Under the pieces are notes generated by a model. That model did no database searches. It saw only the letters and a program-made list of their open reading frames with translations, and was not told the DNA's origin. From positions 1 through 22,392 of the forward strand of contig JAWSUS010000037.1 in the NCBI GenBank assembly GCA_033549025.1: DNA of 22,392 bases. The letters run 5' to 3'. Shown in pieces: positions 34 through 22,392 of this stretch. Position numbers and translations under genes: made by a program. The DNA is from Desulfuromonadales bacterium (GTDB lineage: Bacteria; Desulfobacterota; Desulfuromonadia; Desulfuromonadales; SZUA-540). Numbering within the stretch: the first letter of the stretch is position 1; every line of letters starts with the position of its first letter.

Positions 34-1392
34 TTATCCACTTATACCGCTGTTCAAATTTCTGGAGCCGGCTCTTTTTATCAACCGATAGATGTTAAAT
101 GAAATAGCTGAATAGTGTGCCGTTAAAACAATACTATAGATGATAATTGTCAATGTCGGGCTAAAAGAAAAAAGAAATGAAAAATAAAAAATTAAAACAA
201 CCAACGACACTCTAACTACATTAAACCTTAAAAATAGACCTTGTCTTTCAAACACATTTAAAACACTCATCAATGGAGAAGATACAAATTGTGCCACTAA
301 ATAAATAGCTAAAATACGTGCAAATATACCTGCGCGGCCCCATTCTTCACCAAAAGAAATTGAAAATAACCATGGCCCGTATATAACCAGTATTAATGCA
401 GGCACTACGCTTAGCATAAAAAGTCTTTTTAAAACATACTTTGTGATTTTGCGTATTTTTTCTGGGTTTTTTCGTCCAACTTTTGCAATTTCACCGTAGT
501 ATGCTTGACCAGTTGTTTGGCCGAACAAAGCAATCGGCAACGCCAGTGCGGTCAGGGCCAATCCTAACTGGCCAGTTGTCTCAGCACCAAAAAGTTTAGC
601 ACTGAATATCAACGGCGCTTGAACAGAGAACACCAATAAAAACTGTGAGGGCAAGCGATATTTAGGAAAGTTTGAGTAATGCTTGAGCAAAAATAAAATA
701 CGCCGTTTGGTGACAAATCTTCCCCCGGCCCTGAACTTATTCTTAAAACTATTAGTAAGGCTCAGAATTCCTCCGGCCTGCGTCACCACATGCCCGAGCA
801 ATAGCCCCAAAGGTTTCAACGCAAGTAAACCCAATCCGATCTTGACAAGGGAACCACAGATTGACTGCCATACATTTGTTTTTGCAACTACTTTGAATGC
901 TTTTTCTCGAGTCGCCCACTGGGAAAGAATCTCATAAAACCCCGCCCCAACAACCGCAATAATGAGTAGCCACCAATATGGCATCAATAATTGCATGTCG
1001 AGAAGTGCCAATATCGGCCTGGCGAACAGCGATAAAACAAGCGCTGAAACAGTCGACATAACACCTAAAGAAATCAGACATAAAACAGCCAGATTGACTG
1101 CGAGCCCATCATTTTTTGGCAAAGGGAGAGCCATCGAATATCGCAAGGTTCCAAACGGGACAAGCATCGCCGTCATTGCGACAAAAACCGACAGTACACC
1201 CATATGTTCCGGCGTATATATACGGGTGATTATCGGTATCGAAATAGCGCCTAGAACTTTGGCAATGCCAGAACCACTGGCCAGCACAGCCATATTACGG
1301 AATACAGAATTTCCAGGACTATTGCTCTGCCATTTTTTTAAAACACGAGCTTTTTGGCTGGAGAACCAGCTTGATGTTTTTGCTTTAGCCAC
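34..1392 (-). CDS. wzx: Wzx-type oligosaccharide flippase (MOP superfamily polysaccharide biosynthesis protein)
   Basis: 452-aa polytopic membrane protein. The N-terminal pattern 'LASGSGIAKVLGAISIPIITRIYTPEHMGVLSVF...LRYSMAL' is typical of Wzx, and it lies in a capsule locus. Visibly more AT-rich than its neighbours. Start uncertain (GTG 1392 or ATG 1293). Confidence 0.88.
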   Translation of the reverse strand: MAKAKTSSWFSSQKARVLKKWQSNSPGNSVFRNMAVLASGSGIAKVLGAISIPIITRIYTPEHMGVLSVFVAMTAMLVPFGTLRYSMALPLPKNDGLAVNLAVLCLISLGVMSTVSALVLSLFARPILALLDMQLLMPYWWLLIIAVVGAGFYEILSQWATREKAFKVVAKTNVWQSICGSLVKIGLGLLALKPLGLLLGHVVTQAGGILSLTNSFKNKFRAGGRFVTKRRILFLLKHYSNFPKYRLPSQFLLVFSVQAPLIFSAKLFGAETTGQLGLALTALALPIALFGQTTGQAYYGEIAKVGRKNPEKIRKITKYVLKRLFMLSVVPALILVIYGPWLFSISFGEEWGRAGIFARILAIYLVAQFVSSPLMSVLNVFERQGLFLRFNVVRVSLVVLIFYFSFLFSFSPTLTIIIYSIVLTAHYSAISFNIYRLIKRAGSRNLNSGISG

Positions 1393-1465
1393 TAAGCGTT
1401 AAACCTTGCCTCAAATAAGCAGGAGATGATCCAAAATGCGTAAAATCGGGATGATGGTTTGACAA

Positions 1466-1506
1466 AGGGTCGGGTTGAGGGTCACCCAGGGTCGGGTTGA
1501 GGGTCA
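1466..1506. repeat. Tandem duplication of the 19-mer AGGGTCGGGTTGAGGGTCA
   Basis: Exact copies at 1466-1484 and 1488-1506 separated by CCC; directly abuts the repeat at 1507. Confidence 0.9.
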
Positions 1507-1565
1507 GGCCTGGCAAACGGGGATCTGGCATAAATGATCCGCGAGCTATTAAGGTTGTGCCAATT
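1507..1565. repeat. ~60-bp direct repeat, copy 1 (downstream of the parE stop)
   Basis: GGCCTGGCAAACGGGGATCTGGCATAAATGATCCGCGAGCTATTAAGGTTGTGCCAATT; differs from 2206-2265 by 2 substitutions and 1 indel. Confidence 0.95.
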
Positions 1566-1572
1566 CCAATCA

Positions 1573-1884
1573 TTAATCCAAGCGCTCCTTCAATCGTGCG
1601 ATGATGTCCATCCGTTCGTGAAGTATGGCCAGAATCAGTGCGGGGGCAGCAGCCCGAGGCAGGCAAAAGACATAGTGATGGCCTGCTAATCGCACACGAA
1701 CACCGGGGCATAGATCATCCCGCTGTCGGAAGGCTCCGCGCCCTTGTGCAAGCTCTATGGCGGCTGTTTCGATTTGCCTAATGTATTCCTGACGCTGTGT
1801 CGTACCCCATTTTCGTTCGGTATAGCTGGCAATCTTTTGAAGATCGACCGCAGCGCCGGCGGTGAGTAGGTAAGGTTGACTCAT
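1573..1884 (-). CDS. parE: Type II toxin, RelE/ParE family
   Basis: 103 aa with ParE hallmarks 'YLLTAGAAVDLQKIASYTERKWGTTQRQEY' and C-terminal 'HYVF...ILAILHERMD'. ATGA overlap with the upstream antitoxin. Confidence 0.92.
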   Translation of the reverse strand: MSQPYLLTAGAAVDLQKIASYTERKWGTTQRQEYIRQIETAAIELAQGRGAFRQRDDLCPGVRVRLAGHHYVFCLPRAAAPALILAILHERMDIIARLKERLD

Positions 1885-2126
1885 TCCGCAGATTCCGCCC
1901 TTATCGCTTGCTCTGCGATCTCGCTGATGCTGCCCTTGATCACCTCTCCCCGCTGCGCTTGGGCGACCCGCTCTGCGAGCAGGGTTCTGATATCATTCAG
2001 CTCCGTTTCCTGAGCATCGAAGAGACGCTCAAGTGTAAATTGCTTGATCGTTTTTCCCTCAAGTGCTGCCATGGCTTTCAGGGCCTGATGTTGCTGTTCG
2101 GTGATATCAATCGTCAGTCGGCTCAT
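1881..2126 (-). CDS. Type II antitoxin (ParD-like, ribbon-helix-helix type)
   Basis: 81 aa 'MSRLTIDITEQQHQALKAMAALEGKTIKQF' (beta strand plus helices, RHH-like) with an acidic C-terminus. GGGAG RBS; translationally coupled to parE. Confidence 0.85.
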   Translation of the reverse strand: MSRLTIDITEQQHQALKAMAALEGKTIKQFTLERLFDAQETELNDIRTLLAERVAQAQRGEVIKGSISEIAEQAIRAESAE

Positions 2127-2160
2127 TTATTTATCTCCCACGGTTGGTAAATGTATCCAA

Positions 2161-2189
2161 ACAATACCACAAATGTGGGTTTGTGTAAA
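2161..2189 (-). promoter_or_regulatory. Putative sigma70 promoter of the TA operon with overlapping operator palindrome
   Basis: Minus strand: TTTACA (2189-2184), 17 bp, TATTGT (2166-2161) preceded by TGn. Palindrome CCACA-aa-TGTGG (2167-2178) in the spacer, consistent with TA autorepression. Confidence 0.65.
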
Positions 2190-2205
2190 TTGATGGCTTG
2201 GATCG

Positions 2206-2265
2206 GGCCTGACAAACGGGGATTTGGCATAAATTGATCCGCGAGCTATTAAGGTTGTGCCAATT
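2206..2265. repeat. ~60-bp direct repeat, copy 2 (downstream of the dehydrogenase stop)
   Basis: GGCCTGACAAACGGGGATTTGGCATAAATTGATCCGCGAGCTATTAAGGTTGTGCCAATT; the last 31 nt are identical to copy 1; internal inverted arms ATTTGGCATAA / TTGTGCCAATT. Confidence 0.95.
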
Positions 2266-2285
2266 TGGAATCTTGAGTCGATGCC

Positions 2286-3602
2286 TCAAAGCCCCCAATA
2301 ACGCAATCCCGCGCTCTCAACCTCTGCCCGATCCAACACCGCCTTTACATCCACCACCACCCCGCAACCGTCATCGCAGCAGAGCGCCTTCAGAGCCGCT
2401 GGGGTGAAGCGTTGGCGGTAAGCATCGTGAGCCACGGCCCACACCACTGCATCCACCTGGCCGACATTATCCACATCTACAAGTTCCAAGCCATACTCAT
2501 GCCGCGCCTCATCGGCATCGGCCAAGGGATCGGCCACCAGCACCTCGACCTCGTAGTCCTGCAGTTCGCGGACGATGTCGATGACTTTGGAGTTGCGGAT
2601 ATCGGGAACGTTCTCTTTAAAGGTCAACCCCAGCACCAGCACCCTAGCCCCCTTGACCGCCTTGCCTGCTTTGATAAGCTTTTTGACAGTATTTTCGGCC
2701 ACATACTTGCCCATACCGTCGTTGATGCGGCGACCGGCTAGAATGACTTGCGGGTTATAACCGATGGCCTCGGCCTTGTAGGTGAGGTAATAGGGATCGA
2801 CGCCGATGCAGTGGCCTCCGACCAACCCGGGGGTGAACTTGAGAAAGTTCCACTTGGTGCCGGCCGCGGCCAGAACGTCCATGGTGGGGATGCCTAGTTT
2901 GCCGAAGATGATGGCCAGTTCATTCATGAGGGCGATATTGAGGTCGCGCTGGGTGTTCTCGATAACCTTGGCCGCTTCGGCTACTTTGATGCTGGAAGCC
3001 CGGTGCACGCCGGCAGAGACGACCATTTCGTAAACGCCGGCCACGGTGTCGAGAGTTTCAGCATCCTGCCCTGAGACTACCTTGATAATTTTGTCGACGG
3101 TGTGCACTTTGTCGCCGGGATTGATACGTTCAGGCGAATATCCGACCTTGAAATCAACTCCGCATTTGAGGCCCGATTCGGCCTCGAGAATCGGCACGCA
3201 GATCTCCTCGGTCACGCCAGGATAAACGGTCGATTCAAAGACGATGATGGCGCCGGGCGCCAGGTGGCGGCCGATGGTGCGGGCGGCCGACTCGACGGGG
3301 CGCAGGTCGGGCTTTTTGTAGTCATCGATAGGCGTCGGTACGGTGACGATAAGAAAGGACGCCTCTTTAAGCCGGGCCGGATCCAACGTATAGTCGATGC
3401 GCGTCGCCGCCAGTTCGGCGGAAGAGAGTTCGCCGGTGGCATCATAACCGCGCTTGAGCTCGGTGATTTTCTTGGCGCTGATATCAAAACCAATCACCTC
3501 GGCTACTTTGCCGAAGGCCGCTGCCAGCGGCAGGCCGACATAACCCAGGCCGACGAGGGCAATCTTGGCTTCTTTGTTGCGTATCTGTTCTACCCTGACC
3601 AC
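2286..3602 (-). CDS. wbpO: UDP-N-acetylhexosamine 6-dehydrogenase (WbpO/TviB/CapL-like nucleotide-sugar dehydrogenase)
   Basis: GLGYVGLP Rossmann motif, 'ESTVYPG', 'SPERINPG', catalytic 'GGHCIGVDPYYL', 'FKENVPDIRNSK'. Start moved to GTG 3602, which follows an AGGAGG RBS (ORF track start is 3629). Confidence 0.9.
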   Translation of the reverse strand: MVRVEQIRNKEAKIALVGLGYVGLPLAAAFGKVAEVIGFDISAKKITELKRGYDATGELSSAELAATRIDYTLDPARLKEASFLIVTVPTPIDDYKKPDLRPVESAARTIGRHLAPGAIIVFESTVYPGVTEEICVPILEAESGLKCGVDFKVGYSPERINPGDKVHTVDKIIKVVSGQDAETLDTVAGVYEMVVSAGVHRASSIKVAEAAKVIENTQRDLNIALMNELAIIFGKLGIPTMDVLAAAGTKWNFLKFTPGLVGGHCIGVDPYYLTYKAEAIGYNPQVILAGRRINDGMGKYVAENTVKKLIKAGKAVKGARVLVLGLTFKENVPDIRNSKVIDIVRELQDYEVEVLVADPLADADEARHEYGLELVDVDNVGQVDAVVWAVAHDAYRQRFTPAALKALCCDDGCGVVVDVKAVLDRAEVESAGLRYWGL

Positions 3603-3644
3603 GTTGTTCCTCCTGACATCGACTTCCAACCGACCATAAATCCT

Positions 3645-3746
3645 TTAGCCGCAGATTTCGCCGATTGGCGCAGATAAAAACCTTAAAGAAAGCCTATTTT
3701 CTTGGTTTTAGACCTTATCCGCGTTCATCTGCGTGCATCAGCGGTT
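3645..3746. repeat. ~100-bp imperfect palindrome built from CGCAGAT-type heptamers
   Basis: Left arm CGCAGAT/CGCCGAT/CGCAGAT (3650, 3659, 3669); right arm ATCCGCG/ATCTGCG/ATCAGCG (3717, 3727, 3737); inner arms AAAACC/GGTTTT and AAGAAA/TTTCTT. Confidence 0.85.
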
Positions 3747-3782
3747 TACTTACCTTTAAATCTCTCCGCTCACAGATAACGG

Positions 3783-4169
3783 TTAAGGTGCAACCAAAAG
3801 ATCGACCCTGTTTTCCAGGTAGCGGAAATCCAGCCCGGCGGCACCGAAGTTTACCAACAAGCCGATGGAAAGACCGGTCAGGCGCAGGCAATTTAAAACT
3901 TGGTTGGCGTGACTGGCCGCCAGATTCTTCATGGCTTTCAGTTCGACTAGCAGCTGCCCTTCCACCAGAAGATCAGCGCAAAATTCCCCGACGGACTGCT
4001 GGCGAAACCAGACCTCCAGCGGTACCTGAGTTTGCACTTCGAGGCCCTTTTCCTTGAGGGCCACGAGCAAGGCCGACCGGTAAACGGAATCCTGAAACCC
4101 TATCCCCAGTTCGTTGCTGACTTCAAAACAGGCACTGAGCACCTGCTCGGTGACTTCATCAAAAGCCAT
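3783..4169 (-). CDS. GxxExxY family protein (PD-(D/E)xK nuclease fold)
   Basis: 'CFEVSNELGIGFQDSVY', 'ADLLVEGQLLVELKA', 'GLLVNFG' match the family layout. ATG 4169 follows GGAGGGAG; 128 aa. Confidence 0.88.
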   Translation of the reverse strand: MAFDEVTEQVLSACFEVSNELGIGFQDSVYRSALLVALKEKGLEVQTQVPLEVWFRQQSVGEFCADLLVEGQLLVELKAMKNLAASHANQVLNCLRLTGLSIGLLVNFGAAGLDFRYLENRVDLLVAP

Positions 4170-4232
4170 ATCTCCCTCCGCAAAGAACAGATGAAACAAA
4201 ATCCCCTGATTCCCAGGTAAAGGACCTGCCCT

Positions 4233-4958
4233 TTACTCTGGCGACTTCCTCTCCAAGGCGGCCAGGCCGGCCCCAAGCATGACCCGGGTCGATTCGGGTC
4301 GATGGGCGTCGCTGCCGAAGCAGTGATAATACTGCCGCTGCTGCAGCTGACGAGCGCGCTGGGTGACGCTGCTGCCGTAATGGCCGGCGAAACTGCCGAT
4401 ATTCCCTTGGAACAGACACCCCTGCTGCCGCAGCGCCTCGACCAGACTGTGGGCGCCAGTCTCACCATCTCTGTCGGTGCCGGTGAAGTAGGCCTTGACC
4501 TTGTGCAGCAGACCGCCGCCGCTGGCGGGCAGAGCCAAGTAGCCGTAGCGCTCGGGATGGGCAAAGAGTGGCGTCAACCCCTTGCGCACGATGGCAAAGA
4601 TGAAATCTTTGAGAGCCTCGCCATCGGCCTGGGAGGGTGACTCGACCAGCACCATCCCCGTATCGCCCAAAGGCTGCAGATCGGACAGCAGACGCGGGAA
4701 GTATTCATCGAGGGTGTATTCCATGCCGGCATAAAGCTGCAGGGCAATGCCCTGATGATCGAGTTCCCGCTGTAGATCGGCCACTGCCCCCCGCACAGCT
4801 GTCGGCGTATTGTCATAAACGCCGCGTATGCAGTGGGGTGTGCAATAAACCTGCCGAAAACCGGCGCCGACCAGCAAGCGAGCCAATTCCACCGACTCGG
4901 CCAGATCGCGGCAGCCATCGTCGAGACCGGGCAATATGTGGCAATGGTAGTCGATCAT
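4233..4958 (-). CDS. cpsB: CpsB/CapC-family PHP tyrosine-protein phosphatase
   Basis: 'MIDYHCHILPGLDDG', 'TPH', 'AHPERY', 'GSDAH' metal-binding motifs; adjacent to wzc. Confidence 0.92.
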   Translation of the reverse strand: MIDYHCHILPGLDDGCRDLAESVELARLLVGAGFRQVYCTPHCIRGVYDNTPTAVRGAVADLQRELDHQGIALQLYAGMEYTLDEYFPRLLSDLQPLGDTGMVLVESPSQADGEALKDFIFAIVRKGLTPLFAHPERYGYLALPASGGGLLHKVKAYFTGTDRDGETGAHSLVEALRQQGCLFQGNIGSFAGHYGSSVTQRARQLQQRQYYHCFGSDAHRPESTRVMLGAGLAALERKSPE

Positions 4959-5096
4959 CTCTGCCCCCCGGATGCCACAAGCGCAGCACCGGGGTCCTTT
5001 CTCATTAACCGGAGGGAGTTGTATCAGGTATGGGAGGGGTTAGCAATTCAGGAAATTCCTGAGTTGCATAATGCAACACTTCTCAGTCTTTTTTGC

Positions 5097-5127
5097 TTTT
5101 GACCTATCCGCGTGCATCAGCGGCTAA
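5097..5127. repeat. Half copy of the heptamer element (right arm of 3706-3746 minus one 10-bp unit)
   Basis: TTTTGACCTATCCGCGTGCATCAGCGG versus TTTTAGACCTTATCCGCG[TTCATCTGCG]TGCATCAGCGG. Confidence 0.8.
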
Positions 5128-5140
5128 CAGGGGTAAGCCC

Positions 5141-7498
5141 CTATTTTTTCAGCAGCCGTTGCCACCAGCTTTTTTGCTGGCCGTTGTCACTTTCGCCGTA
5201 GTAGCCACCATAGTAACCGCCGTAATAGCCGTAGGCACCGCCATAATACTGCGCCCCCTTCGCATTTTTGTCGTTGAGGATCAGTCCGGCGACGGGGGAT
5301 TGCACATTGGCAAGTTGGTTTCTGAGTTCGGTAGCCGTTTTACGATTGTTGCGACCGACTTCAAAGGTCACCAGCAGCAGATCGGCCAGGCGGCTGAGCA
5401 CCATGGCATCGGTCACGGCCAGCAGGGGCGGCGCGTCGAGGATAATGTGATCGTAGCGGGTGCGCAGGTCGGCCACCAGGTCGGCCATGGCGTCGGCGGC
5501 GAGCAATTCGGCGGGATTAGGGGGCGTGCTGCCGGAAGCCAGAAAATCGACACCCCGTGCCCCGGCCAGATTGACGGCCTCTTCAAAGGTCTGGTCGCCG
5601 ACCAGCACCTCGGTCAGACCGGGTGTGCGATGTCCTTCGAAAAACTCGTGCAGAGCCGGCTTACGCAGATCGCAGCCGATGACCAGCACCCGCGTTCCCG
5701 CCGTCTGGGCCAGGGTCACGGCCAGATTGGCGGAAGTGGTGGTCTTGCCTTCGCCGGGAAAGGAACTGCTCACCATCAGCACCTGTTTGGTCTTCTGGAT
5801 GGCGGAAAAGTGGATACTGGTCCGCAGGGCCCGAAAGGCCTCGGCCGCTGGCGACTTGGGATCCAGCTGACTGACCAGGGTATGTTGCCGCCCTTGCCGG
5901 TCCTTGTCGCGACGCCCCAAAAAGGGGATGGTCACCAGCGCGGGCTGCCCGACCAGGTGCTTGATCTGCTCGGCATCCTTGAGGGTATCGTCCATGTACT
6001 CGAGGAAAAAGGCCAGGCCGACGCCGACCATGAGGCCGACGATGAGCCCCAGCAGCAGATTTTTCTTCTTCTGCGGCTTGACGGGGCGGTCGGGGGTGAT
6101 GGCCGGATCGATGATGTCGATATTGCTCATGGTGGAGGCGCGCAGAATACGGGCCTCTTCGTGTTTTTGCAGCAAAAAGGTGTAGATGTCGGCATTGACC
6201 TTGGCCTGGCGGGCCAGATGGGCCAGCTTGCGCTCGGCTTCAGGCAGTTTTTTGAGCTGCTGGTCGTAGCGGTCCAGCTCATGTTGCAGGGCGGTCCGCT
6301 GCTGGCCGAAGTTCAGCAGAATGCTGCGATAGGTGGCCAACAGTTTGCGCTGCGTCTCGGCGATCTGGCCGAGCAGGGTGAGCACGGCGGGATGCGCTTC
6401 GGTATATTCGACCGTGAGGGCCCTTTTCTGCACCTCGTATTCGGCCAGTTTCTGCGCCAGGCCGGCGACGACGGGGTCATCGAGCAAAACGGCGGGCGCG
6501 TAGTTCTGCCCCTTGGCCATCGCCTCGGAGAGGGCTTCGATAGCGAATTCAACCTGTTTGTGGCGCACCGCCACGGCCGCCATCTGCCGCTCGGTGTCGG
6601 CCAGGCGTTCAATGAAGCTTTCCGCTTCGACGTCGAGCTGGATCAGCCCGGAGGTGCTCTTGAATTGCTCGAGCTGGCTTTCGGCCCCATCGAGGTCGTG
6701 CCGCACATTTTCGAGCTGGGTCGCGATGAATTCCAGGGATTTGCTGGCCTCCTGGGTTTTGAGAGTAACGGAGCGCTCCAGAAAGACCTGCGCCAGGGTG
6801 TTGACGACATCGCGGGCGGTGACAGGATCGGCGTGGGTATAGGTCAGTTTGATGATGTTCGTCTTTTTGCCCAGCTCGTTGGCCCGTAGGGTCCCGCGCA
6901 GGCCAGCCACCGTGCGGTTAAAAGAGCGCAGAGTCAGGCGGAAGCTGTCCCCCGGCTCACCGACCAGCTCGGTCAACAGCAGCTCGATACCGTCACCGCG
7001 TAGCAGCTCCCCGGCGCGCCCCTGCCCGACCCTCTTGCCATCCGCGTCCTTGACGACATAACCCGCCTCGTCGGTCAGCTCGATGCGATAAACCGGTTCG
7101 GCCGCCGTGCTGCGGAACTCAAGCAGGCGCAGGGAAAGATCTTCGGATCTCTTGTCGATGTGCCAGTCGAGGTGCAGCCGCCGCACGACCTCTTCCACAT
7201 TGGTGCGGGAGCGCAGGATCTCGATTTCCGATTCGATAGGGCTGCCCTGCCCCAGACCGAGGTCGCCGAGCAGGTCGACCTTGCCTTTTTCGTCACGCAC
7301 ATGCAGCGTGCCCGACGCCTCAAAAATCGGCGTGGCCATGAAGGTAAAGAGAGCGACCAGCAGAAAAACAATCGCGAAGGAGGCCAGGAAAAGGCCTTTA
7401 CGGCGGGTCAGGACCTGCAGGTAATCGGAGAGGTGGATCTCTTCTTCCTGCCACATCGGCGAATCTTGCGGCTTGGGCGCGTTCTGGGAAGACGGCAT
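5141..7498 (-). CDS. wzc: Polysaccharide co-polymerase / BY tyrosine autokinase
   Basis: N-terminal 'EEEIHLSDYLQVL' plus TM, periplasmic coiled coil, 'PVKPQKK' plus second TM, 'AEAFRALRT', Walker A 'SSFPGEGKTT', Walker B 'ILDAPP', Tyr-rich tail. Confidence 0.95.
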   Translation of the reverse strand: MPSSQNAPKPQDSPMWQEEEIHLSDYLQVLTRRKGLFLASFAIVFLLVALFTFMATPIFEASGTLHVRDEKGKVDLLGDLGLGQGSPIESEIEILRSRTNVEEVVRRLHLDWHIDKRSEDLSLRLLEFRSTAAEPVYRIELTDEAGYVVKDADGKRVGQGRAGELLRGDGIELLLTELVGEPGDSFRLTLRSFNRTVAGLRGTLRANELGKKTNIIKLTYTHADPVTARDVVNTLAQVFLERSVTLKTQEASKSLEFIATQLENVRHDLDGAESQLEQFKSTSGLIQLDVEAESFIERLADTERQMAAVAVRHKQVEFAIEALSEAMAKGQNYAPAVLLDDPVVAGLAQKLAEYEVQKRALTVEYTEAHPAVLTLLGQIAETQRKLLATYRSILLNFGQQRTALQHELDRYDQQLKKLPEAERKLAHLARQAKVNADIYTFLLQKHEEARILRASTMSNIDIIDPAITPDRPVKPQKKKNLLLGLIVGLMVGVGLAFFLEYMDDTLKDAEQIKHLVGQPALVTIPFLGRRDKDRQGRQHTLVSQLDPKSPAAEAFRALRTSIHFSAIQKTKQVLMVSSSFPGEGKTTTSANLAVTLAQTAGTRVLVIGCDLRKPALHEFFEGHRTPGLTEVLVGDQTFEEAVNLAGARGVDFLASGSTPPNPAELLAADAMADLVADLRTRYDHIILDAPPLLAVTDAMVLSRLADLLLVTFEVGRNNRKTATELRNQLANVQSPVAGLILNDKNAKGAQYYGGAYGYYGGYYGGYYGESDNGQQKSWWQRLLKK

Positions 7499-10237: not shown

Positions 10238-10312
<75 letters not shown>

Positions 10313-17712: not shown

Positions 17713-19590
17713 CTAAAAAAACTCCCGCAGGCTCTCGTCGATCCCCATGAGCGTCTCGTACCAGAACTCCCGGGCCGTTTCCACCTTGTCCGTTTCAAAC
17801 CGCTGCAGCCACGCCTCCAGACGCGGATCGGTCTCGCCATCAATACTCTTTTTGCGCACCAGGAAGGTATGCAGGTAATCGATGTTGCGCTGCGACTCCC
17901 AGAAGATGGGACTGTTGCGGCTGTTGAGGCGACTGGCCAGCACGGAGACGGCGCGCAGGTAGGCTTCTTTGCAGTCGTAGAGCGACCCCATGACCTCGGG
18001 CAGCATCTCTTCAGCCCAGCCCCGGTGAAAACGGCAGGTGCCGAGATTGTCGAGGAGGAGTTCCTGTTTCATGCGCTCGGCGCACAGGCGCCCCAGAGTC
18101 CGCGGCGGGATAAAGTCGTAGCTGTAGATCATGTAGTATTTGCCCATGATGGCCATGGGCGCCAGCACCCCGGCCACCCAGTACTGGTTGGGCACCATCC
18201 AGCCCCGGCGATTGAAGGCGACATGGACCAGACTGTCATGAAGCTTGATCCCCTTCCGGCGTGAATGCAGACGACTCCACTTGCGCACCCCTTCGCGAAA
18301 GTCGAGGATCCCCCGCCGCGCCAGAATGGCGTCGATAAGATCGCAGCCAAGGGTTGCGTTGTGCAGGGAATCGGCCACCACGTCGAACTCAGGCCAGGCC
18401 CAGCGGGGTTTGTTCTTCACACCGAGTTCGGCTGGCGTCAAGACCCCCTGATCGAGCAGATCCATCAGCCAGGCCAGCACGCCGCCGCCGGAAATAGCGT
18501 CGAATCCCATGGCGTCGCAATGGCGGTTGAGCTTTTCCGCCGCCCGTTGATCAAAAATCCCGCAGAGGGGCCCCAGGGTCTGGTAAGGTTCGTAATCCTT
18601 CTTATATTGGCCGTTCAGCTTCTTGCAGACGGCGACACAGGGCTCGCCGCAGGTGGCCTGCTGCTTTTGATGGATGGTCTCTTCATTGAACTGCAGCAGA
18701 TAGTGGTTCAGGATCAGATTTTCATGCAGAGCCAGCCGTTCTTCTTCGCTCCAGAAGATGGTGCGGTAGTTGAAGGCCAGAATCCGCCCCCCCATGCCGG
18801 CATAGTTGACCCCGAAGGTGCCGCCTGTCTGCAGTTTTTCGTCGTACCGATATTTGGTGGTGACTTCCAGATCCTTCTGCATCAGGTGCAGGTCGTACTT
18901 GTTGCGGAACCACTCGTCGACCACCTTGCGGTCGCGAAAATCCTCGTTGACCGAAGTCCCTCCGTAAATAATGGCCACGATGCCGTGCTGCTGCACCATG
19001 GCGCTGCCGAAACCGCCGCGCCCGGCCCAGGTGTCGACGTGGCTGATCTTCCCCTTGTTGATGGGGACGGACATGATGCCGCCCATGTCCGTGGAGGCGG
19101 CCGCCGGACCGGCAACCAGAATGCGCGGATCCTTTTCGTAGCGATGGCCGAACATCTCATAGACCCGATCGGTCATGGCGTACACGCCCTGGCGGCCAGA
19201 CTGCCAGATCGCCGTCGCCTCCACTGGAACCACCTCGACCTCGATCTCTTCGCCATGATTGCGGTTGAGAAAAAGTACCGAGGGGACCGGAGCCTTGCCC
19301 ACGAGGCTGAGCATGTTGATGCCCAGATTATCGAAAACGAGTCCGGCGCCCCCCATGGAACTGATGTAAACTCCCTGCCAGCAGGGAGAATGTCCGGTCA
19401 CCAGCAGGCGGTTGGAACCGGGAAAGATGGAACCGGCGAAGAGGCCGACGCCAAAGTTGAGACTGCGGTATTCCTCGGCCATATGGATGCCGAGATCGAC
19501 CGGCCCGAAATAGCGGTCGAATCCATACTTTTTCAGGCGATAGAAACCGCTGGCCGCATCGACCAGCAGAACACGCTGGAACTGAGTCAT
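17713..19590 (-). CDS. Tungsten/molybdopterin oxidoreductase of the AOR family, GAPOR-like (glyceraldehyde-3-phosphate:ferredoxin oxidoreductase type)
   Basis: AOR-family motifs 'SSMGG', 'GPAA', 'AGRGGFG', 'DAMGFD', 'DNLGTCRF'; GAPOR-like blocks 'TKYRY...TGGTFG.NY', 'CGEPCVAVCKK', 'YEPY..LGP', 'CRFHRGW'; GAGGTG RBS. Confidence 0.85.
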   Translation of the reverse strand: MTQFQRVLLVDAASGFYRLKKYGFDRYFGPVDLGIHMAEEYRSLNFGVGLFAGSIFPGSNRLLVTGHSPCWQGVYISSMGGAGLVFDNLGINMLSLVGKAPVPSVLFLNRNHGEEIEVEVVPVEATAIWQSGRQGVYAMTDRVYEMFGHRYEKDPRILVAGPAAASTDMGGIMSVPINKGKISHVDTWAGRGGFGSAMVQQHGIVAIIYGGTSVNEDFRDRKVVDEWFRNKYDLHLMQKDLEVTTKYRYDEKLQTGGTFGVNYAGMGGRILAFNYRTIFWSEEERLALHENLILNHYLLQFNEETIHQKQQATCGEPCVAVCKKLNGQYKKDYEPYQTLGPLCGIFDQRAAEKLNRHCDAMGFDAISGGGVLAWLMDLLDQGVLTPAELGVKNKPRWAWPEFDVVADSLHNATLGCDLIDAILARRGILDFREGVRKWSRLHSRRKGIKLHDSLVHVAFNRRGWMVPNQYWVAGVLAPMAIMGKYYMIYSYDFIPPRTLGRLCAERMKQELLLDNLGTCRFHRGWAEEMLPEVMGSLYDCKEAYLRAVSVLASRLNSRNSPIFWESQRNIDYLHTFLVRKKSIDGETDPRLEAWLQRFETDKVETAREFWYETLMGIDESLREFF

Positions 19591-19776
19591 TGGACACCTC
19601 GAGGTGAAATAGTCGCGTCGTGGGCTTGCCCAGACAATATTCTATCCCCTCACAAAGAAATAACCAGTGCACGTTTCAGATCAGGCGCGGTAGCCAAAGG
19701 CCAAAGAAGGCATTATCCTGTTGAGATAGAGGGTCCGTTGCCATTTCGATTTTTTCCACCACAAGGATTTTTTCTC

Positions 19777-21114
19777 ATGATACGCCTAAAGCCATTTTCC
19801 ACACCCATCCTGCTGTTGGTTCTGCTGCTGGCGGGATGCCAGCCCAACCTCTCCCAGCGCAGCATCCGGGACTTGGCCTTGTTGCCCCAAAGCCCTCTCG
19901 CCTACCTGCGGGACGACGATAAAGAGCGGCACCTGCTCACTAAAGAGAGACAACAGGAGATGGCGGCAGAATTTCTGGAGCAGCATTATCGGCCCTGGCA
20001 GGCAGAAGAGGAACGCATCGGCGGCAGCCACCCCTTCTGGGCCATCGACTGGATCCGGGTGGAGGATGTTTTCGCCGCCAACCTTAAGCTTCTTGACGCA
20101 GAGCGCCGGGACAAGCTCATACGTCAGGCCGACGCCGGACGGTATCCCAGCCTGGATCGGCGCGCCGTCACCCTGCGGCGAACAGATGTGCGGGCTCTGC
20201 CAACCCAATCCCCCCTGTTCAACGATCCGAACTGGGCCGGCCAGGGCTTTCCCTTCGACCTGTTGCAGCATGGCGTGCTGCCTGGTGGCACCCCTTTGCG
20301 GGTCACCCATCAGAGCCTTGACGGCGGTTGGGCATTGGTGGAAACGGCCCTGCTCTACGGCTGGATTCCCCTCAGCCAACTGGCCTGGGTCGATATTCCC
20401 CCCGGTCAGATGACCGCTTCAGCCAGGCATGTCGTTTTCACCCGGGATGACGTCGCCCTGAAGGACCCCGATGGAGACTACCTTTTCAGCGCCAACATCG
20501 GTACGGTCCTGCCCGTAAGCGACAGCACCCCGACAGGCGATACCGTGCTCGTACCCGTGGCCGACCCCACCCGGCAGGCTCAGTGGATTGAAGTCAGAAT
20601 TCCCCACGACCAGGCCGAGCCCTTCCCTCTGGTGCTGACCCCACTCAACCTGGCCAGTCTGGCTGAACGCTTCATGGGGCAACCCTATGGCTGGGGGGAC
20701 AGCTACGAAGGCCGCGACTGTTCGGGAACCATCCGCGACCTCTTTGCCCCCTTCGGCCTCTGGTTGCCACGCAACTCCGCCGATCAAGCCCAGGTAGGCC
20801 AAGTCATTCCCCTGGCAGAACAGGCGCCCAAAGAACGTGAGAGGATTATCCTCTCCGAAGGTATCCCCTTCCTGACTTTGATTCAGCTGCCCGGTCACAT
20901 CATGCTCTACCTCGGCGACTACAAAGGGCGCCCCGCCCTGCTGCACACTTTTTGGGGCGTGCGCACAAAAACCTTAACGGGTAAGGAAAATCGCTGGATT
21001 GTCGGCAAAACCGTGATCACCACCCTGCAGCCTGGGGTCGAGGAAAACGGTCTTTTCTTGAAAATAGGCAGGCTTCGCGACAGGGTTGTAAAGATGAATG
21101 TGGTGCTTGACTGA
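19777..21114 (+). CDS. NlpC/P60 (C40) peptidoglycan peptidase lipoprotein with SH3-like domains
   Basis: Start ATG 19777 with lipobox 'LLAGC'; catalytic domain 'GQPYGWG...RDCSG...WLPRNSADQ...GHIMLY...H'; 445 aa. Confidence 0.9.
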   Translation: MIRLKPFSTPILLLVLLLAGCQPNLSQRSIRDLALLPQSPLAYLRDDDKERHLLTKERQQEMAAEFLEQHYRPWQAEEERIGGSHPFWAIDWIRVEDVFAANLKLLDAERRDKLIRQADAGRYPSLDRRAVTLRRTDVRALPTQSPLFNDPNWAGQGFPFDLLQHGVLPGGTPLRVTHQSLDGGWALVETALLYGWIPLSQLAWVDIPPGQMTASARHVVFTRDDVALKDPDGDYLFSANIGTVLPVSDSTPTGDTVLVPVADPTRQAQWIEVRIPHDQAEPFPLVLTPLNLASLAERFMGQPYGWGDSYEGRDCSGTIRDLFAPFGLWLPRNSADQAQVGQVIPLAEQAPKERERIILSEGIPFLTLIQLPGHIMLYLGDYKGRPALLHTFWGVRTKTLTGKENRWIVGKTVITTLQPGVEENGLFLKIGRLRDRVVKMNVVLD

Positions 21115-21171: not shown

Positions 21172-21354
21172 CCCGACGCCCGAAAGCGTCTTTAATGATT
21201 TTCCACATTCCCACTGAGGTTGCCTTTGGCGTTTCAGATTGGCAAGACCTTCTCTGAACTTTTCGAAACCTAACTTACGTTTCGCAGAATTTCTTTGAAG
21301 TCCATGTGGATTTCCATGTTCTGTTCAGACGACCGGCTGGGATTGTATCAACAT

Positions 21355-21591
21355 TTAGTAAATTAATGATTTACCTTCGATTTCTTTTTTCCTTCTAAAA
21401 TACTCATCCTCAGAAATCCGTCCGGCTTTGTAGTCATCCTCGAGATCTCCTAAGGCTTTTTTGTTGGAGTACTCGTAGGCCGCGCCGGCAGCGCCAGCTC
21501 CCAGTGCGGCACCACCGACAACGCCTCGGCTACACCCACCAGTGACCGCCAGCAGTGCGCTCAATAAAACTATCGCTAATAGTCGATGCAT
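21355..21591 (-). CDS. Small lipoprotein with glycine zipper and SHOCT-like C-terminus
   Basis: Signal peptide ending TGGC, 'GVVGGAALGAGAAG', 'YKAGRISEDEYFRRKKEI'; AAGGGGG RBS. Confidence 0.8.
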   Translation of the reverse strand: MHRLLAIVLLSALLAVTGGCSRGVVGGAALGAGAAGAAYEYSNKKALGDLEDDYKAGRISEDEYFRRKKEIEGKSLIY

Positions 21592-21690
21592 AATTAACCC
21601 CCTTTCCTTATTTCCTGAGTCTGATCTTTTTTAAACGGCCGCAACCAAGGCGATAACAAAGAAAATCACAGCCCAACTCAACTTGCTCGA

Positions 21691-22350
21691 TGAGCTCGGT
21701 CCGCTATAGTGGAAATCAAGTATTGGTCAGGCGGCATTTTGCTGCCTGATGAATTTCTTCCAGTATGCCGCCGGAGAGAGAATACCCCGGTTGGCATGTC
21801 GTCCCTGTCGGTTGTAGAACATCTCAAGGTACTCGCTAATCTCGGCGACAGCCTGCTTACGGGTGCCATACTTCCGGTGGTGAACCATTTCCCTCTTGAG
21901 GGTACCGAGGAAACTCTCCATTGGCGCGTTGTCCCAGCGTTTCGCCTTGCGGCTCATCGACGGCTGCATCTTGGTTTGTTTCATCAGCTTCTAGTAGTGT
22001 CCTGAACAATACTGGCTGCCGCGATCTGAATGGTGAATCAGCTCTTCCGGCGGCCGTCGGGTCCTTTTTAGGATTTCCTTCTCCAACTGAGCTTCGGCCA
22101 ACTCTTTGCGCAGTCTGGAAACCTCGGCTTCCAACTCGGACACGTTATGACTGCCGTGGGTCTTCAACCCGCTGGTGTTATGCTTCTTGATCCCGTTGCG
22201 CAGCGTCTGCTGCGAAACACTTAATCTCCGCCCAACCTCGGCCAACGTCAGACCGTCATCAACAACCAGACTGACGGCTTCCTCCTTGAACTCGAATCTA
22301 AAGCGAAATATTCTCTTTATCAAAGCACACCGTAAAACCCGGTCAGTTCA
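21691..22350 (-). mobile_element. IS3-family insertion sequence remnant, internally deleted
   Basis: Candidate termini TGAACTGACC... (22350, minus strand) and TGAGCTCGGTCC... (21691, plus strand) fit the IS3 TG...CA rule; contains orfA and the 3' part of orfB; only 660 bp. Confidence 0.8.
21727..22323 (-). pseudogene. IS3 transposase pseudogene (orfA fused to truncated orfB, internal TAG)
   Basis: OrfA HTH 'EFKEEAVSLV...EVGRRLSVSQQTLRN' and zipper 'EVSRLRKELAEAQLEKEILK' joined to orfB 'HHSDRGSQY'; in-frame TAG at 21993-21991, then 'SMSRKA..WDNAPMESF...YNRQGRH'. Confidence 0.9.
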
Positions 22351-22392
22351 CGGCCGGGATATAAGGTGCCGGGCCGTTTAGGTCCGTTGGTT

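Follow-up and report, generated by a model that had tools for sequence, protein, structure and literature searches.

Relics of TIRYT ends and GxxExxY-linked hairpins in the intergenic gaps of a Desulfuromonadales capsule locus

The gaps between genes of this capsule locus are best explained, with a probability of about 0.6, as holding relics of TIRYT ends and GxxExxY-linked hairpins, between whose same-direction copies genes were likely gained and lost by recombination, with no integron-type recombinase involved. In two congeners and in short metagenome contigs, parDE and the GxxExxY gene are missing or rearranged, and the breakpoints lie at the repeats. That capsule loci vary is known, and the points and routes of gene entry have rarely been mapped. 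Here the entry point would be a hairpin of the GxxExxY type with a TIRYT end nested inside it; its empty, donor-like and filled forms are all seen in public data. A concrete candidate substrate is now at hand for two enzyme families, TIRYT, described since 2013 (PMC3733652, available text), and GxxExxY.

Layout of the locus

The window is the whole stretch of 22,392 nt, taken from a genome that is 100% complete in 78 contigs (G000). On its minus strand lie, in this order and all co-oriented, wzi, wza, wzc, cpsB, GxxExxY, tviB-like dehydrogenase, parD, parE and wzx (Table 1), which confirms the first-pass annotation on the orientation of the repeat-bracketed genes from wzc to wzx. The same annotation saw no local recombinase, a statement that omits the IS3 end at 1-75 and the GxxExxY gene itself. 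The IS3 insertion lies at the stop codon of wzx and has duplicated 3 bp of target. Because contig C36 carries a 4-nt IS end, and because target duplication and reading frame agree, we infer from these sequences that the capsule locus carries on to C36. No public sequencing run contained half of the window's words, and uncovered bins were not taken as evidence.

Table 1 Features between the contig end and wzc
Feature	Position	Strand	Remark
IS3-family element end (contig C64)	1-75		breaks assembly
wzx flippase	34-1392	-	first gene of AT-rich block; listed frame enters IS end by ~15 codons
short tandem stutter of TIR end	1455-1500	-	
family A copy 1, hairpin-arm stub + TIRYT right terminal repeat	1501-1565	-	TIR at 1501-1524
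parE toxin (PF05016)	1573-1884	-	
parD antitoxin (PF09386)	1881-2126	-	
parDE promoter/operator-like segment	2160-2193	-	conserved
family A copy 2	2200-2265	-	TIR at 2200-2223
tviB-like UDP-sugar dehydrogenase	2286-3596	-	core capsule gene
family B hairpin, arms 9-nt-periodic	3645-3748	-	paired region 3649-3744
GxxExxY protein (TIGR04256, PF13366), PD-(D/E)XK fold	3783-4151	-	
candidate decayed arms of the GxxExxY gene's own repeat type	4170-4215	-	likeness by eye only
cpsB/capC phosphatase	4233-4958	-	core capsule gene
family B single arm	5105-5126	-	downstream of wzc
wzc tyrosine kinase	5141-7498	-	conserved export block

TIRYT ends around parDE

Family A is a direct repeat of 65-66 bp that brackets parDE, its two copies being 92% identical (BLAST E ~4e-20). 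Judged from its sequence, it is chimeric, joining a hairpin-arm stub to the right-hand terminal repeat of a transposase element of the TIRYT (Y1/HUH) type, and such an element sits elsewhere in the same genome. Over 24 bp, the TIR of copy 1 has 1 mismatch to the end of the element on contig C58, and that of copy 2 has 2. The finding that the repeats are ends of a known IS or MITE had been named as one that would refute the integron-like proposal; the 3′ 24 bp of family A are, bar these one or two bases, a TIRYT terminal repeat. Over 26 bp, copy 1 is identical to the C58 end at 25 positions and to the end in congener G002 at 24. Six TIR copies within 3 mismatches exist in the genome, three of them at ends of TIRYT genes (contig C13 twice, C58), and copies are also present outside the capsule locus; shuffled patterns gave 0 matches in the genome even at 4 mismatches.

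The C58 gene has the domains Y1_Tnp (PF01797) and Bac_DnaA_C (PF08299), which the available text of PMC6006769 and PMC3733652 gives as the signature of TIRYT, or subclass 2.1.2. Terminal inverted repeats are found in 25 of 29 complete homologues. The GGGGWSAS motif is complete at the C13 and C58 genes; in the window, copy 1 keeps three of the four G, and copy 2 is more decayed. Stutters like that at 1455-1500 come after several TIRYT right ends in relatives. The genome's TIRYT is in two pieces that both touch contig ends.

A derivation of family A from the final 65 bp of a TIRYT gene is ruled out, as the match is limited to the last 26 bp; the preceding 39 bp are identical to the gene at ~11 positions and, read in its frame, hold stops. 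At the corresponding junction congener G001 has an intact hairpin to which the arm stub can be aligned, with 0 of 500 shuffles scoring as high, and the two repeat families are thus not unrelated as had been supposed. Family A itself does not fold (z 0.2 and 1.0 for its two copies), which rules it out as a hairpin. All four intergenic repeats first noted are real, but ‘structured’ fails for this family. An intact TIRtron or MITE was not found at the locus, both A copies having the same direction, and neither a left end nor a transposase gene lies between them. Homology to copy 2 in other strains reaches ~2275. The A repeat alone gave two weak matches in 400 genomes and none in viral contigs.

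As in TIRtron/TIRYT systems, the 3′ 24-26 bp of family A equal the right terminal repeat of a Y1_Tnp + Bac_DnaA_C gene, here and in G002, and the terminal repeat at the C13 and C58 genes fits the GGGGWSAS consensus. Solo TIR copies are described in the available text of PMC3733652 (Di Nocera et al. 2013) and PMC6006769 (Quentin et al. 2018), where no cargo exchange at TIRs is described and activity tests are only proposed. In contrast to a TIRtron, the locus has solo ends in direct orientation, which are joined to a hairpin-arm stub and lie around a toxin-antitoxin operon.

parDE does not form a cassette whose ends are set by the repeats. In homologues with 85% and 93% DNA identity, likeness to the window is limited to the part from 2193 on, making 2193 a boundary common to close homologues in unrelated contexts, and TIR within 5 mismatches was found at 0 of 80 parE loci. 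Close homologues occur without any repeat. When 400 other genomes of the class were compared with the parDE cassette DNA, 3 had matches, and no match spans the repeats.

The slot between tviB and wzx, filled with parDE here, holds an epimerase gene in both congeners. G001 has neither GxxExxY nor parDE, yet it has arms at the same three junctions, with a bare hairpin after tviB. The order in G002 is tviB, TIR relic, epimerase, TIR relic and wzx-like gene, each relic scoring above 500/500 shuffles, and what follows tviB is an arm, a TIR relic and another arm. The match between the window and G002 after parE is not significant (89/500 shuffles).

Metagenome contigs of 153-757 nt (depth 2-7, strain of origin not identified) add to the comparison. 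Three of them, from two studies, have copy 2 and no parD, departing at 2206 inside the TIR, with an overlap with tviB of only 10 bp (two contigs) or 47 bp (one contig). Contigs from two other studies have 1566-2231 with a different GGGGWSAS end upstream. One contig departs at 3644, the outer edge of the hairpin, two carry the 118-bp hairpin in tandem, and one has an additional 10-nt unit at the 5105-5126 arm. Inter-strain breakpoints had been expected in the repeats, and those seen fall at repeat edges or within the TIR segment in four studies; the gaps are short and mostly repeat, so junctions are often expected inside them anyway, and this comparison spans only two congeners with no formal null.

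Family B hairpins and the GxxExxY nuclease

The arms of family B hairpins are built of 7-nt words, one every 9 nt, and the hairpins form strong folds in the sense strand (z -3.7 to -6.4). The one at 3649-3744 has -21.7 kcal/mol (z -5.6 against shuffles), and the single arm at 5105-5126 is of the same family. The candidate fifth relic at 4170-4215 is not significant alone (z 0.3). As had been predicted for the rest of the locus, further repeats were found on C36, where additional hairpins accompany two further GxxExxY genes. GxxExxY and fcl on C36 lie between same-family hairpins, and a near-identical 170-bp repeat surrounds one GxxExxY. Gene-less hairpin copies are found on C36 and C37. Three gaps inspected in the AT-rich block of C36 hold no such repeats, and two detectors found none in the block.

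Family B copies in this genome are confined to one locus, whose repeat sites are of at least five sequence types. Arm words at the same slot differ between genomes, genes are found nested within hairpin loops, and hairpin and unit copy number varies between strains, with tandem amplification. The strict motif-free detector misses the hairpin in the window, 6 of the 11 matches that it gives in the genome are at the background level of 5, and 13 of 19 stretches from several relatives' wzc loci have no strict hairpin. The multicopy sites known as ‘class 4’ in Geobacter metallireducens belong to a different family, by the available part of PMC2700814 (supplement S15). The literature searched yielded no paper describing GxxExxY-linked hairpins.

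A narrow fixed arm pattern scored 1 of 50 flanks, and a motif-free flank test was used instead. Inverted flanks (z>3) are found at 43 of 45 GxxExxY homologues other than the window's own and, within the same order, at 27 of 28 such family members, the controls giving 2/24 (tviB-like) and 2/69 (parDE). The association of hairpin and GxxExxY spans many phyla. The window's own gene fails the test (z 0.4), and the hairpin adjoining it bears an arm word other than that of its clade. On the protein tree, the arm word changes 10 times versus a shuffled mean of 29.7 (0/200 as low), the tree being a quick one in which 37 of 78 branches are open, built on 116 columns, with 50-odd of the rows chosen by likeness to the query. 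That the arm word follows the protein clade argues that the GxxExxY gene is probably part of the hairpin element rather than cargo. In a congener, the gene is located between two arms of a C36-type hairpin. The earlier picture of passengers with no role in sugar synthesis holds in part: parDE is indeed bracketed by family A, but tviB-like and cpsB are core capsule genes, and GxxExxY probably belongs to the element.

The GxxExxY protein is predicted to fold as PD-(D/E)XK (pLDDT 92), and its model matches Cas4 SSO0001 with Z 8.5 and rmsd 3.8 over 105 aligned residues. The fold matches (Z 7-8.6) show the general fold and name no function, which is entered as ‘Unknown’ in PMC3424549. In the window's protein D60, E70 and K72 are retained, and the signature E and one conserved Y are altered; it is probably a decaying copy. 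The two C36 copies score well over the family cut-off and retain their arms. An anti-phage role had been raised as possible, and PADLOC gave 0 matches among the three proteins submitted (GxxExxY, ParD, ParE).

Possible course of gene exchange and alternatives

We consider that a TIRYT end would have inserted into the loop of the hairpin that follows tviB, because this hairpin is bare in G001, whereas G002 shows the arm, TIR relic and arm. parDE may have arrived from a donor already having a TIR before it, with the crossover in the shared 32 bp (2200-2231), which would have produced the 65-bp duplication and pushed out the epimerase gene that both congeners have there. The GxxExxY nuclease would probably bind the arm word cognate to it and nick the extruded hairpin, after which host repair could copy, amplify or delete hairpins and the genes between. 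Toxin-antitoxin pairs tend to keep their DNA segment in place, and parDE, once in, would tend to do so here.

Integrons and CALINs have co-oriented genes separated by imperfect attC hairpins, with IntI and attC core ends (RYYYAAC and GTTRRRY). The first-pass annotation proposed an integron-like array, in which the repeats are dedicated sites and one trans-acting recombinase captures and shuffles single-gene cassettes. The likeness is real in the co-oriented genes, the imperfect hairpins between them, the toxin-antitoxin pair and the strain-dependent slot content, as parDE here and the epimerase between TIR relics in G002 fill the same slot. All TIR copies in the locus have the same direction, GxxExxY and fcl are hairpin-bounded as described above, with the 170-bp repeat round one GxxExxY, and the genome has 7 tyrosine-recombinase matches. 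We nevertheless find such an array quite unlikely. The integrase is absent from the genome as predicted (0 of 9 TIGR02249 matches pass the cut-off); CALINs have no local IntI, so its lack alone does not exclude a CALIN. attC core ends are found in 0 of 6 hairpins on either strand, the site types are several and unrelated, at least five in sequence, and TIRs occur outside the locus too. Moreover, core capsule genes lie between the sites, the AT-rich variable serotype genes are not individually bounded by repeats, parDE has its own promoter-like segment and homologues free of repeats and TIR, and 8 of 29 GxxExxY loci are in non-glycan operons.

The TIR ends and hairpins could instead be passive debris accumulating in a tolerant, often exchanged locus, with GxxExxY and TIRYT inactive, capsules switched by ordinary host recombination and gene turnover merely happening to end in the gaps. 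That family A does not fold, that the window's GxxExxY lacks signature residues and its own arms, that IS3 and IS5-type elements have hit the locus as well, and that relatives' loci mix IS, TA and repeat relics would all fit. Breakpoints from four studies at repeat edges or inside the TIR segment, the differing copy numbers among strains and the two well-scoring C36 genes with arms kept make this rather improbable. A role in RNA, where family B hairpins modulate how the long capsule transcript is processed or how stable it is and GxxExxY acts on RNA hairpins, agrees with the strong sense-strand folding between co-transcribed genes, and such functions are raised for REP-type repeats in the available text of PMC3733652. 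It is very unlikely, given the different arm words at one slot, the genes nested inside the loop and the tandem amplification; Rfam matched none of the repeats and only a tRNA (10241-10312) in the window, and family A would be left unexplained.

A bolder reading, less likely than not, may be considered tentatively. GxxExxY and the 9-nt-periodic hairpins might form an undescribed mobile system, whose enzyme is encoded within the capsule locus and, on recognising the arm word that matches it, would bring about insertion, tandem amplification and the exchange of single genes; with loop-nested TIRYT ends, this would amount to recombinase-free cassette switching of surface polysaccharide. Family B resembles REP/REPIN-RAYT, as far as available descriptions of that system go, in its intergenic hairpins with many gene-less copies and tandem clusters, and in having these repeats on both sides of a small nuclease gene, with repeat type matched to the enzyme clade. 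It differs in that the enzyme is PD-(D/E)XK rather than HUH/Y1, the arms show 7-nt words every 9 nt and no GTAG/CGTC tag, and copies here lie in one locus rather than genome-wide. If GxxExxY does cleave the hairpins, a large family of orphan nucleases would gain a function, and a REP-like system built on another enzyme fold would be added. GxxExxY is present in 82 of 121 genomes of the order.

Layout of the capsule locus and its repeats

On its minus strand, the window carries wzi, wza, wzc, cpsB, GxxExxY (a nuclease-fold family; TIGR04256, PF13366), a tviB-like dehydrogenase gene, parD, parE and wzx, in this order. The window is all of contig C37, and its best database matches point to a Desulfuromonadales-like host. 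An IS3-family element, inserted at the wzx stop codon and flanked by a 3-bp target duplication, splits the locus between C37 and contig C36 of the same genome. The first 4 bases of C36 are the terminal bases of the element seen at the C37 end, the 3 bases flanking it agree between the contigs, an agreement also seen for three further contig pairs, and wzx, read across the join, has a stop codon overlapping the start of the next gene. For these reasons, C36 very likely continues the locus, with acetyltransferase-like, murB, murA, IS5-type transposase, AT-rich transferase, wecG, gmd, GxxExxY, fcl, manC, GxxExxY, manB and GT4/wecA-like genes. Incidentally, its murB-murA pair is a second one, lying within the capsule block.

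Positions of features in the window and in other examined stretches (L numbers)
Feature	Position	Strand	Basis or remark
wzc	7498-5141	-	gene order
cpsB	4958-4233	-	gene order
GxxExxY	4151-3783	-	gene order
tviB-like dehydrogenase	3596-2286	-	gene order
parD, parE	2126-1573	-	gene order
Family A copies	1501-1565; 2200-2265		direct repeat
Family B full hairpin	3649-3744		z -5.6, folding vs shuffles
Family B single arm	5105-5126		
IS3-family element end	1-75 (about 1-78)		C36 counterpart L261:1-10
Palindrome upstream of cpsB	5043-5067		15 bp
tRNA gene	10241-10312		
Right-end repeats	21193-22392		
Overlapping frame	17713-19590	-	
Overlapping frame	18265-21114	+	
Second murB-murA pair	L261:492-2733		C36
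Tandem hairpin units	L261:10762-11397		C36
TIRYT gene	L005:1-873		C13
wzc locus of G021	L015:11421-15477; L016:1533-8100		
Four-helix-bundle gene of G017	L020:15404-16859		

The four repeats listed in the first-pass annotation are all present: two copies of family A, 65-66 bp long and 92% identical, and a full hairpin and a single arm of family B. Their description as structured suits the family B hairpin but not the family A copies, which gave no folding signal (z 0.2 and 1.0). More repeats had been predicted in the rest of the locus, and C36 has them, holding all 10 strict arm pairs of the genome and 5 of the 11 clusters from a motif-free detector (6 elsewhere vs 5 in a shuffled genome). One C36 hairpin, between gmd and GxxExxY, is repeated in at least 4 tandem units of ~139 bp around an assembly gap.

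Family A and transposase ends

The 3′ 24 bp of family A has six genome copies at ≤3 mismatches, while shuffled patterns have none at 4. Of these, three form the ends of Y1-transposase genes located on contigs C13 and C58. The C58 gene combines Y1_Tnp and Bac_DnaA_C domains and has its stop codon inside the repeat, fitting in architecture and repeat the TIRYT/TIRtron (a Y1/HUH transposase with terminal inverted repeats, TIR, and its element) as outlined by Di Nocera et al. (PMC3733652), and also subclass 2.1.2 as outlined by Quentin et al. (PMC6006769). TIRYT-type proteins are present in 126/201 genomes of the order; 32 loci were examined, and terminal inverted repeats were found in 25 of the 29 complete ones. 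The C13 TIRYT gene has a tandemly duplicated 5′ end, its second copy may continue on C58 (L006), and an intact transposase in the genome is possible.

The match to TIRYT ends is limited to the last 26 bp. The corresponding junction of the congener G001 has an intact hairpin, the left arm of which aligns with the 5′ part of family A. In another congener, G002, the junction reads arm, TIR relic, further DNA, other arm, epimerase gene, second TIR relic and wzx-like gene, which by alignment appears intermediate between the bare hairpin of G001 and the window arrangement. At the junction after tviB, all three comparisons beat 500/500 shuffles, as do both G002 relics against the TIR; the window junction after parE compared with the second G002 junction is not above shuffles (89/500 reach its score). 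Family A consists of a hairpin stub followed by a TIRYT end. Because of the arm alignment, the intermediate form and the shuffle tests, the families earlier called unrelated are in fact entangled.

Family B and GxxExxY genes

Fifty-four homologous GxxExxY loci were collected, and among the 45 with both flanks long enough, 43 have inverted flanks (z>3); controls were positive for 2/24 tviB-like genes and 2/69 parDE operons. The order-level set has 30 members, with inverted flanks in 27 of the 28 testable ones from other genomes. Both C36 copies pass, and the window copy gives no inverted-flank signal (z 0.4). Since the window protein also lacks the family's signature glutamate and one conserved tyrosine (D60, E70 and K72 are retained), this copy is probably in decay. 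In a quick 81-protein tree (8 rows unlabeled, many branches open), the arm word, the 7-nt unit of the 9-nt-periodic arms, changes 10 times vs 29.7 for shuffled labels (0/200 as low), a clustering inflated by kinship and query bias. One arm word dominates the window protein's clade over at least 8 phyla, and same-genome paralogues carry other words. G001 has a GxxExxY gene enclosed by the two arms of a C36-type hairpin. Family B, on this evidence, belongs with GxxExxY genes.

PF13366 is given as of unknown function in a passage of PMC3424549. The predicted GxxExxY model (pLDDT 92) resembles PD-(D/E)XK nucleases, with Cas4 SSO0001 at Z 8.5 (rmsd 3.8, 105 aligned) and Hjc lower at Z 6.9, matches that indicate the fold but not what the protein does. 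The family occurs in 82/121 genomes of the order. Because neighbors of 29 loci from other genomes, tallied by inspection, were glycan-pathway genes in 16 and other operons in 8 (5 without clear call), the unit favors glycan loci without being restricted to them. It recurs across families, with differing arm words, in the manC-manB slot (L201, L207, L212, L217, L218) and the gmd-fcl slot (L215, L216, L220, L222; both main protein clades), which suggests that the same slots are targeted repeatedly.

Breakpoints, mechanism and related loci

As had been anticipated, the repeats contain the gene gain and loss junctions of the cases seen, a comparison with no formal null. G001 has wzc-cpsB-tviB-epimerase without GxxExxY and parDE, and arms at 3/3 junctions. 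The other cases are short, shallow metagenome contigs not tied to a strain. Three of them, from two studies, contain family A copy 2, and their window match ends at 2206 with an intact TIR there and parD absent, the tviB overlap being only 10, 10 and 47 bp. Two other studies have the segment 1566-2231, as a single contig at 97% in one and piecewise in the other, where a different GGGGWSAS-type end precedes it and replaces the tviB side; in one such case, 157 bp of other sequence separate parE from the start of family A. For family B, one contig departs from the window at 3644, two have the 118-bp hairpin in tandem, in one the arm on the wzc side follows another hairpin arm, and one contains an additional unit at 5105. 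parDE is itself promiscuous, as the sequence in common with its close homologues begins only at 2193 and does not include the repeats.

With the identity of both repeat types, the GxxExxY link and the breakpoints in repeats taken as demonstrated, we give a probability of about 0.6 to the following overall mechanism. A TIRYT end would have come to rest in the loop of the hairpin that follows tviB, and a TIR-parDE-A donor would have recombined within the shared 32 bp, leaving the duplication. The likely role of GxxExxY is to nick its cognate hairpins, which host repair would then copy or remove together with the intervening genes.

That the repeats are passive debris is unlikely, and a role of the hairpins in RNA regulation is very improbable. 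The integron-like array proposed in the first-pass annotation is improbable as well, given that the genome has no IntI match above the cut-off, attC ends were found in 0/6 hairpins, site types are mixed and TIR copies also occur outside the capsule locus. Moreover, the repeats lie among GC-rich export and nucleotide-sugar genes, and none was found in gaps between AT-rich genes by C36 inspection, strict arm pairs or the motif-free detector, an arrangement unlike an integron with variable cargo. The locus rather resembles REP/RAYT-like repeat-and-nuclease systems plus TIRtron relics. TIRtrons are already in print (PMC3733652), and no published description of GxxExxY hairpins was found in the literature searched, which left most subscription journals outside. 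This locus adds two things: two repeat systems nested together, and a series of empty, donor-like and filled states for one toxin-antitoxin insertion.

The wzc loci of relatives vary in content. Hairpins of several types, TA genes, TIR relics or a four-helix-bundle gene accompanied by short repeats of its own occur in those of G021, G017 and G019, and the loci of other relatives have few such features. In the G021 locus, hairpins, mqsRA, relE, HepT/MNT pairs, and TIRYT genes and ends form a densely packed mosaic. The four-helix-bundle gene of G017 (23S rRNA IVP, PF05635), located between wzc and cpsB, has 7-nt tandem repeats in inverted orientation on its two sides, which makes it a third kind of small gene with repeats at this locus.

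The palindrome upstream of cpsB has 12 genome sites vs 0 for the reversed control, occurs at the matching place and also upstream of wzi in G001, and is likely a transcription-factor operator. A tRNA gene lies immediately upstream of wzi in the window; G001 has another context there, with a nucleotidyltransferase pair. The right end of the window has a transposase fragment (HTH_Tnp_1) and repeats common to other contig ends. Two long opposite-strand frames overlap, and both have Pfam matches, one to aldehyde ferredoxin oxidoreductase and the other to NlpC/P60 with SH3 domains (residue 516 onward); the true start of the plus-strand gene is probably later than the annotated one.
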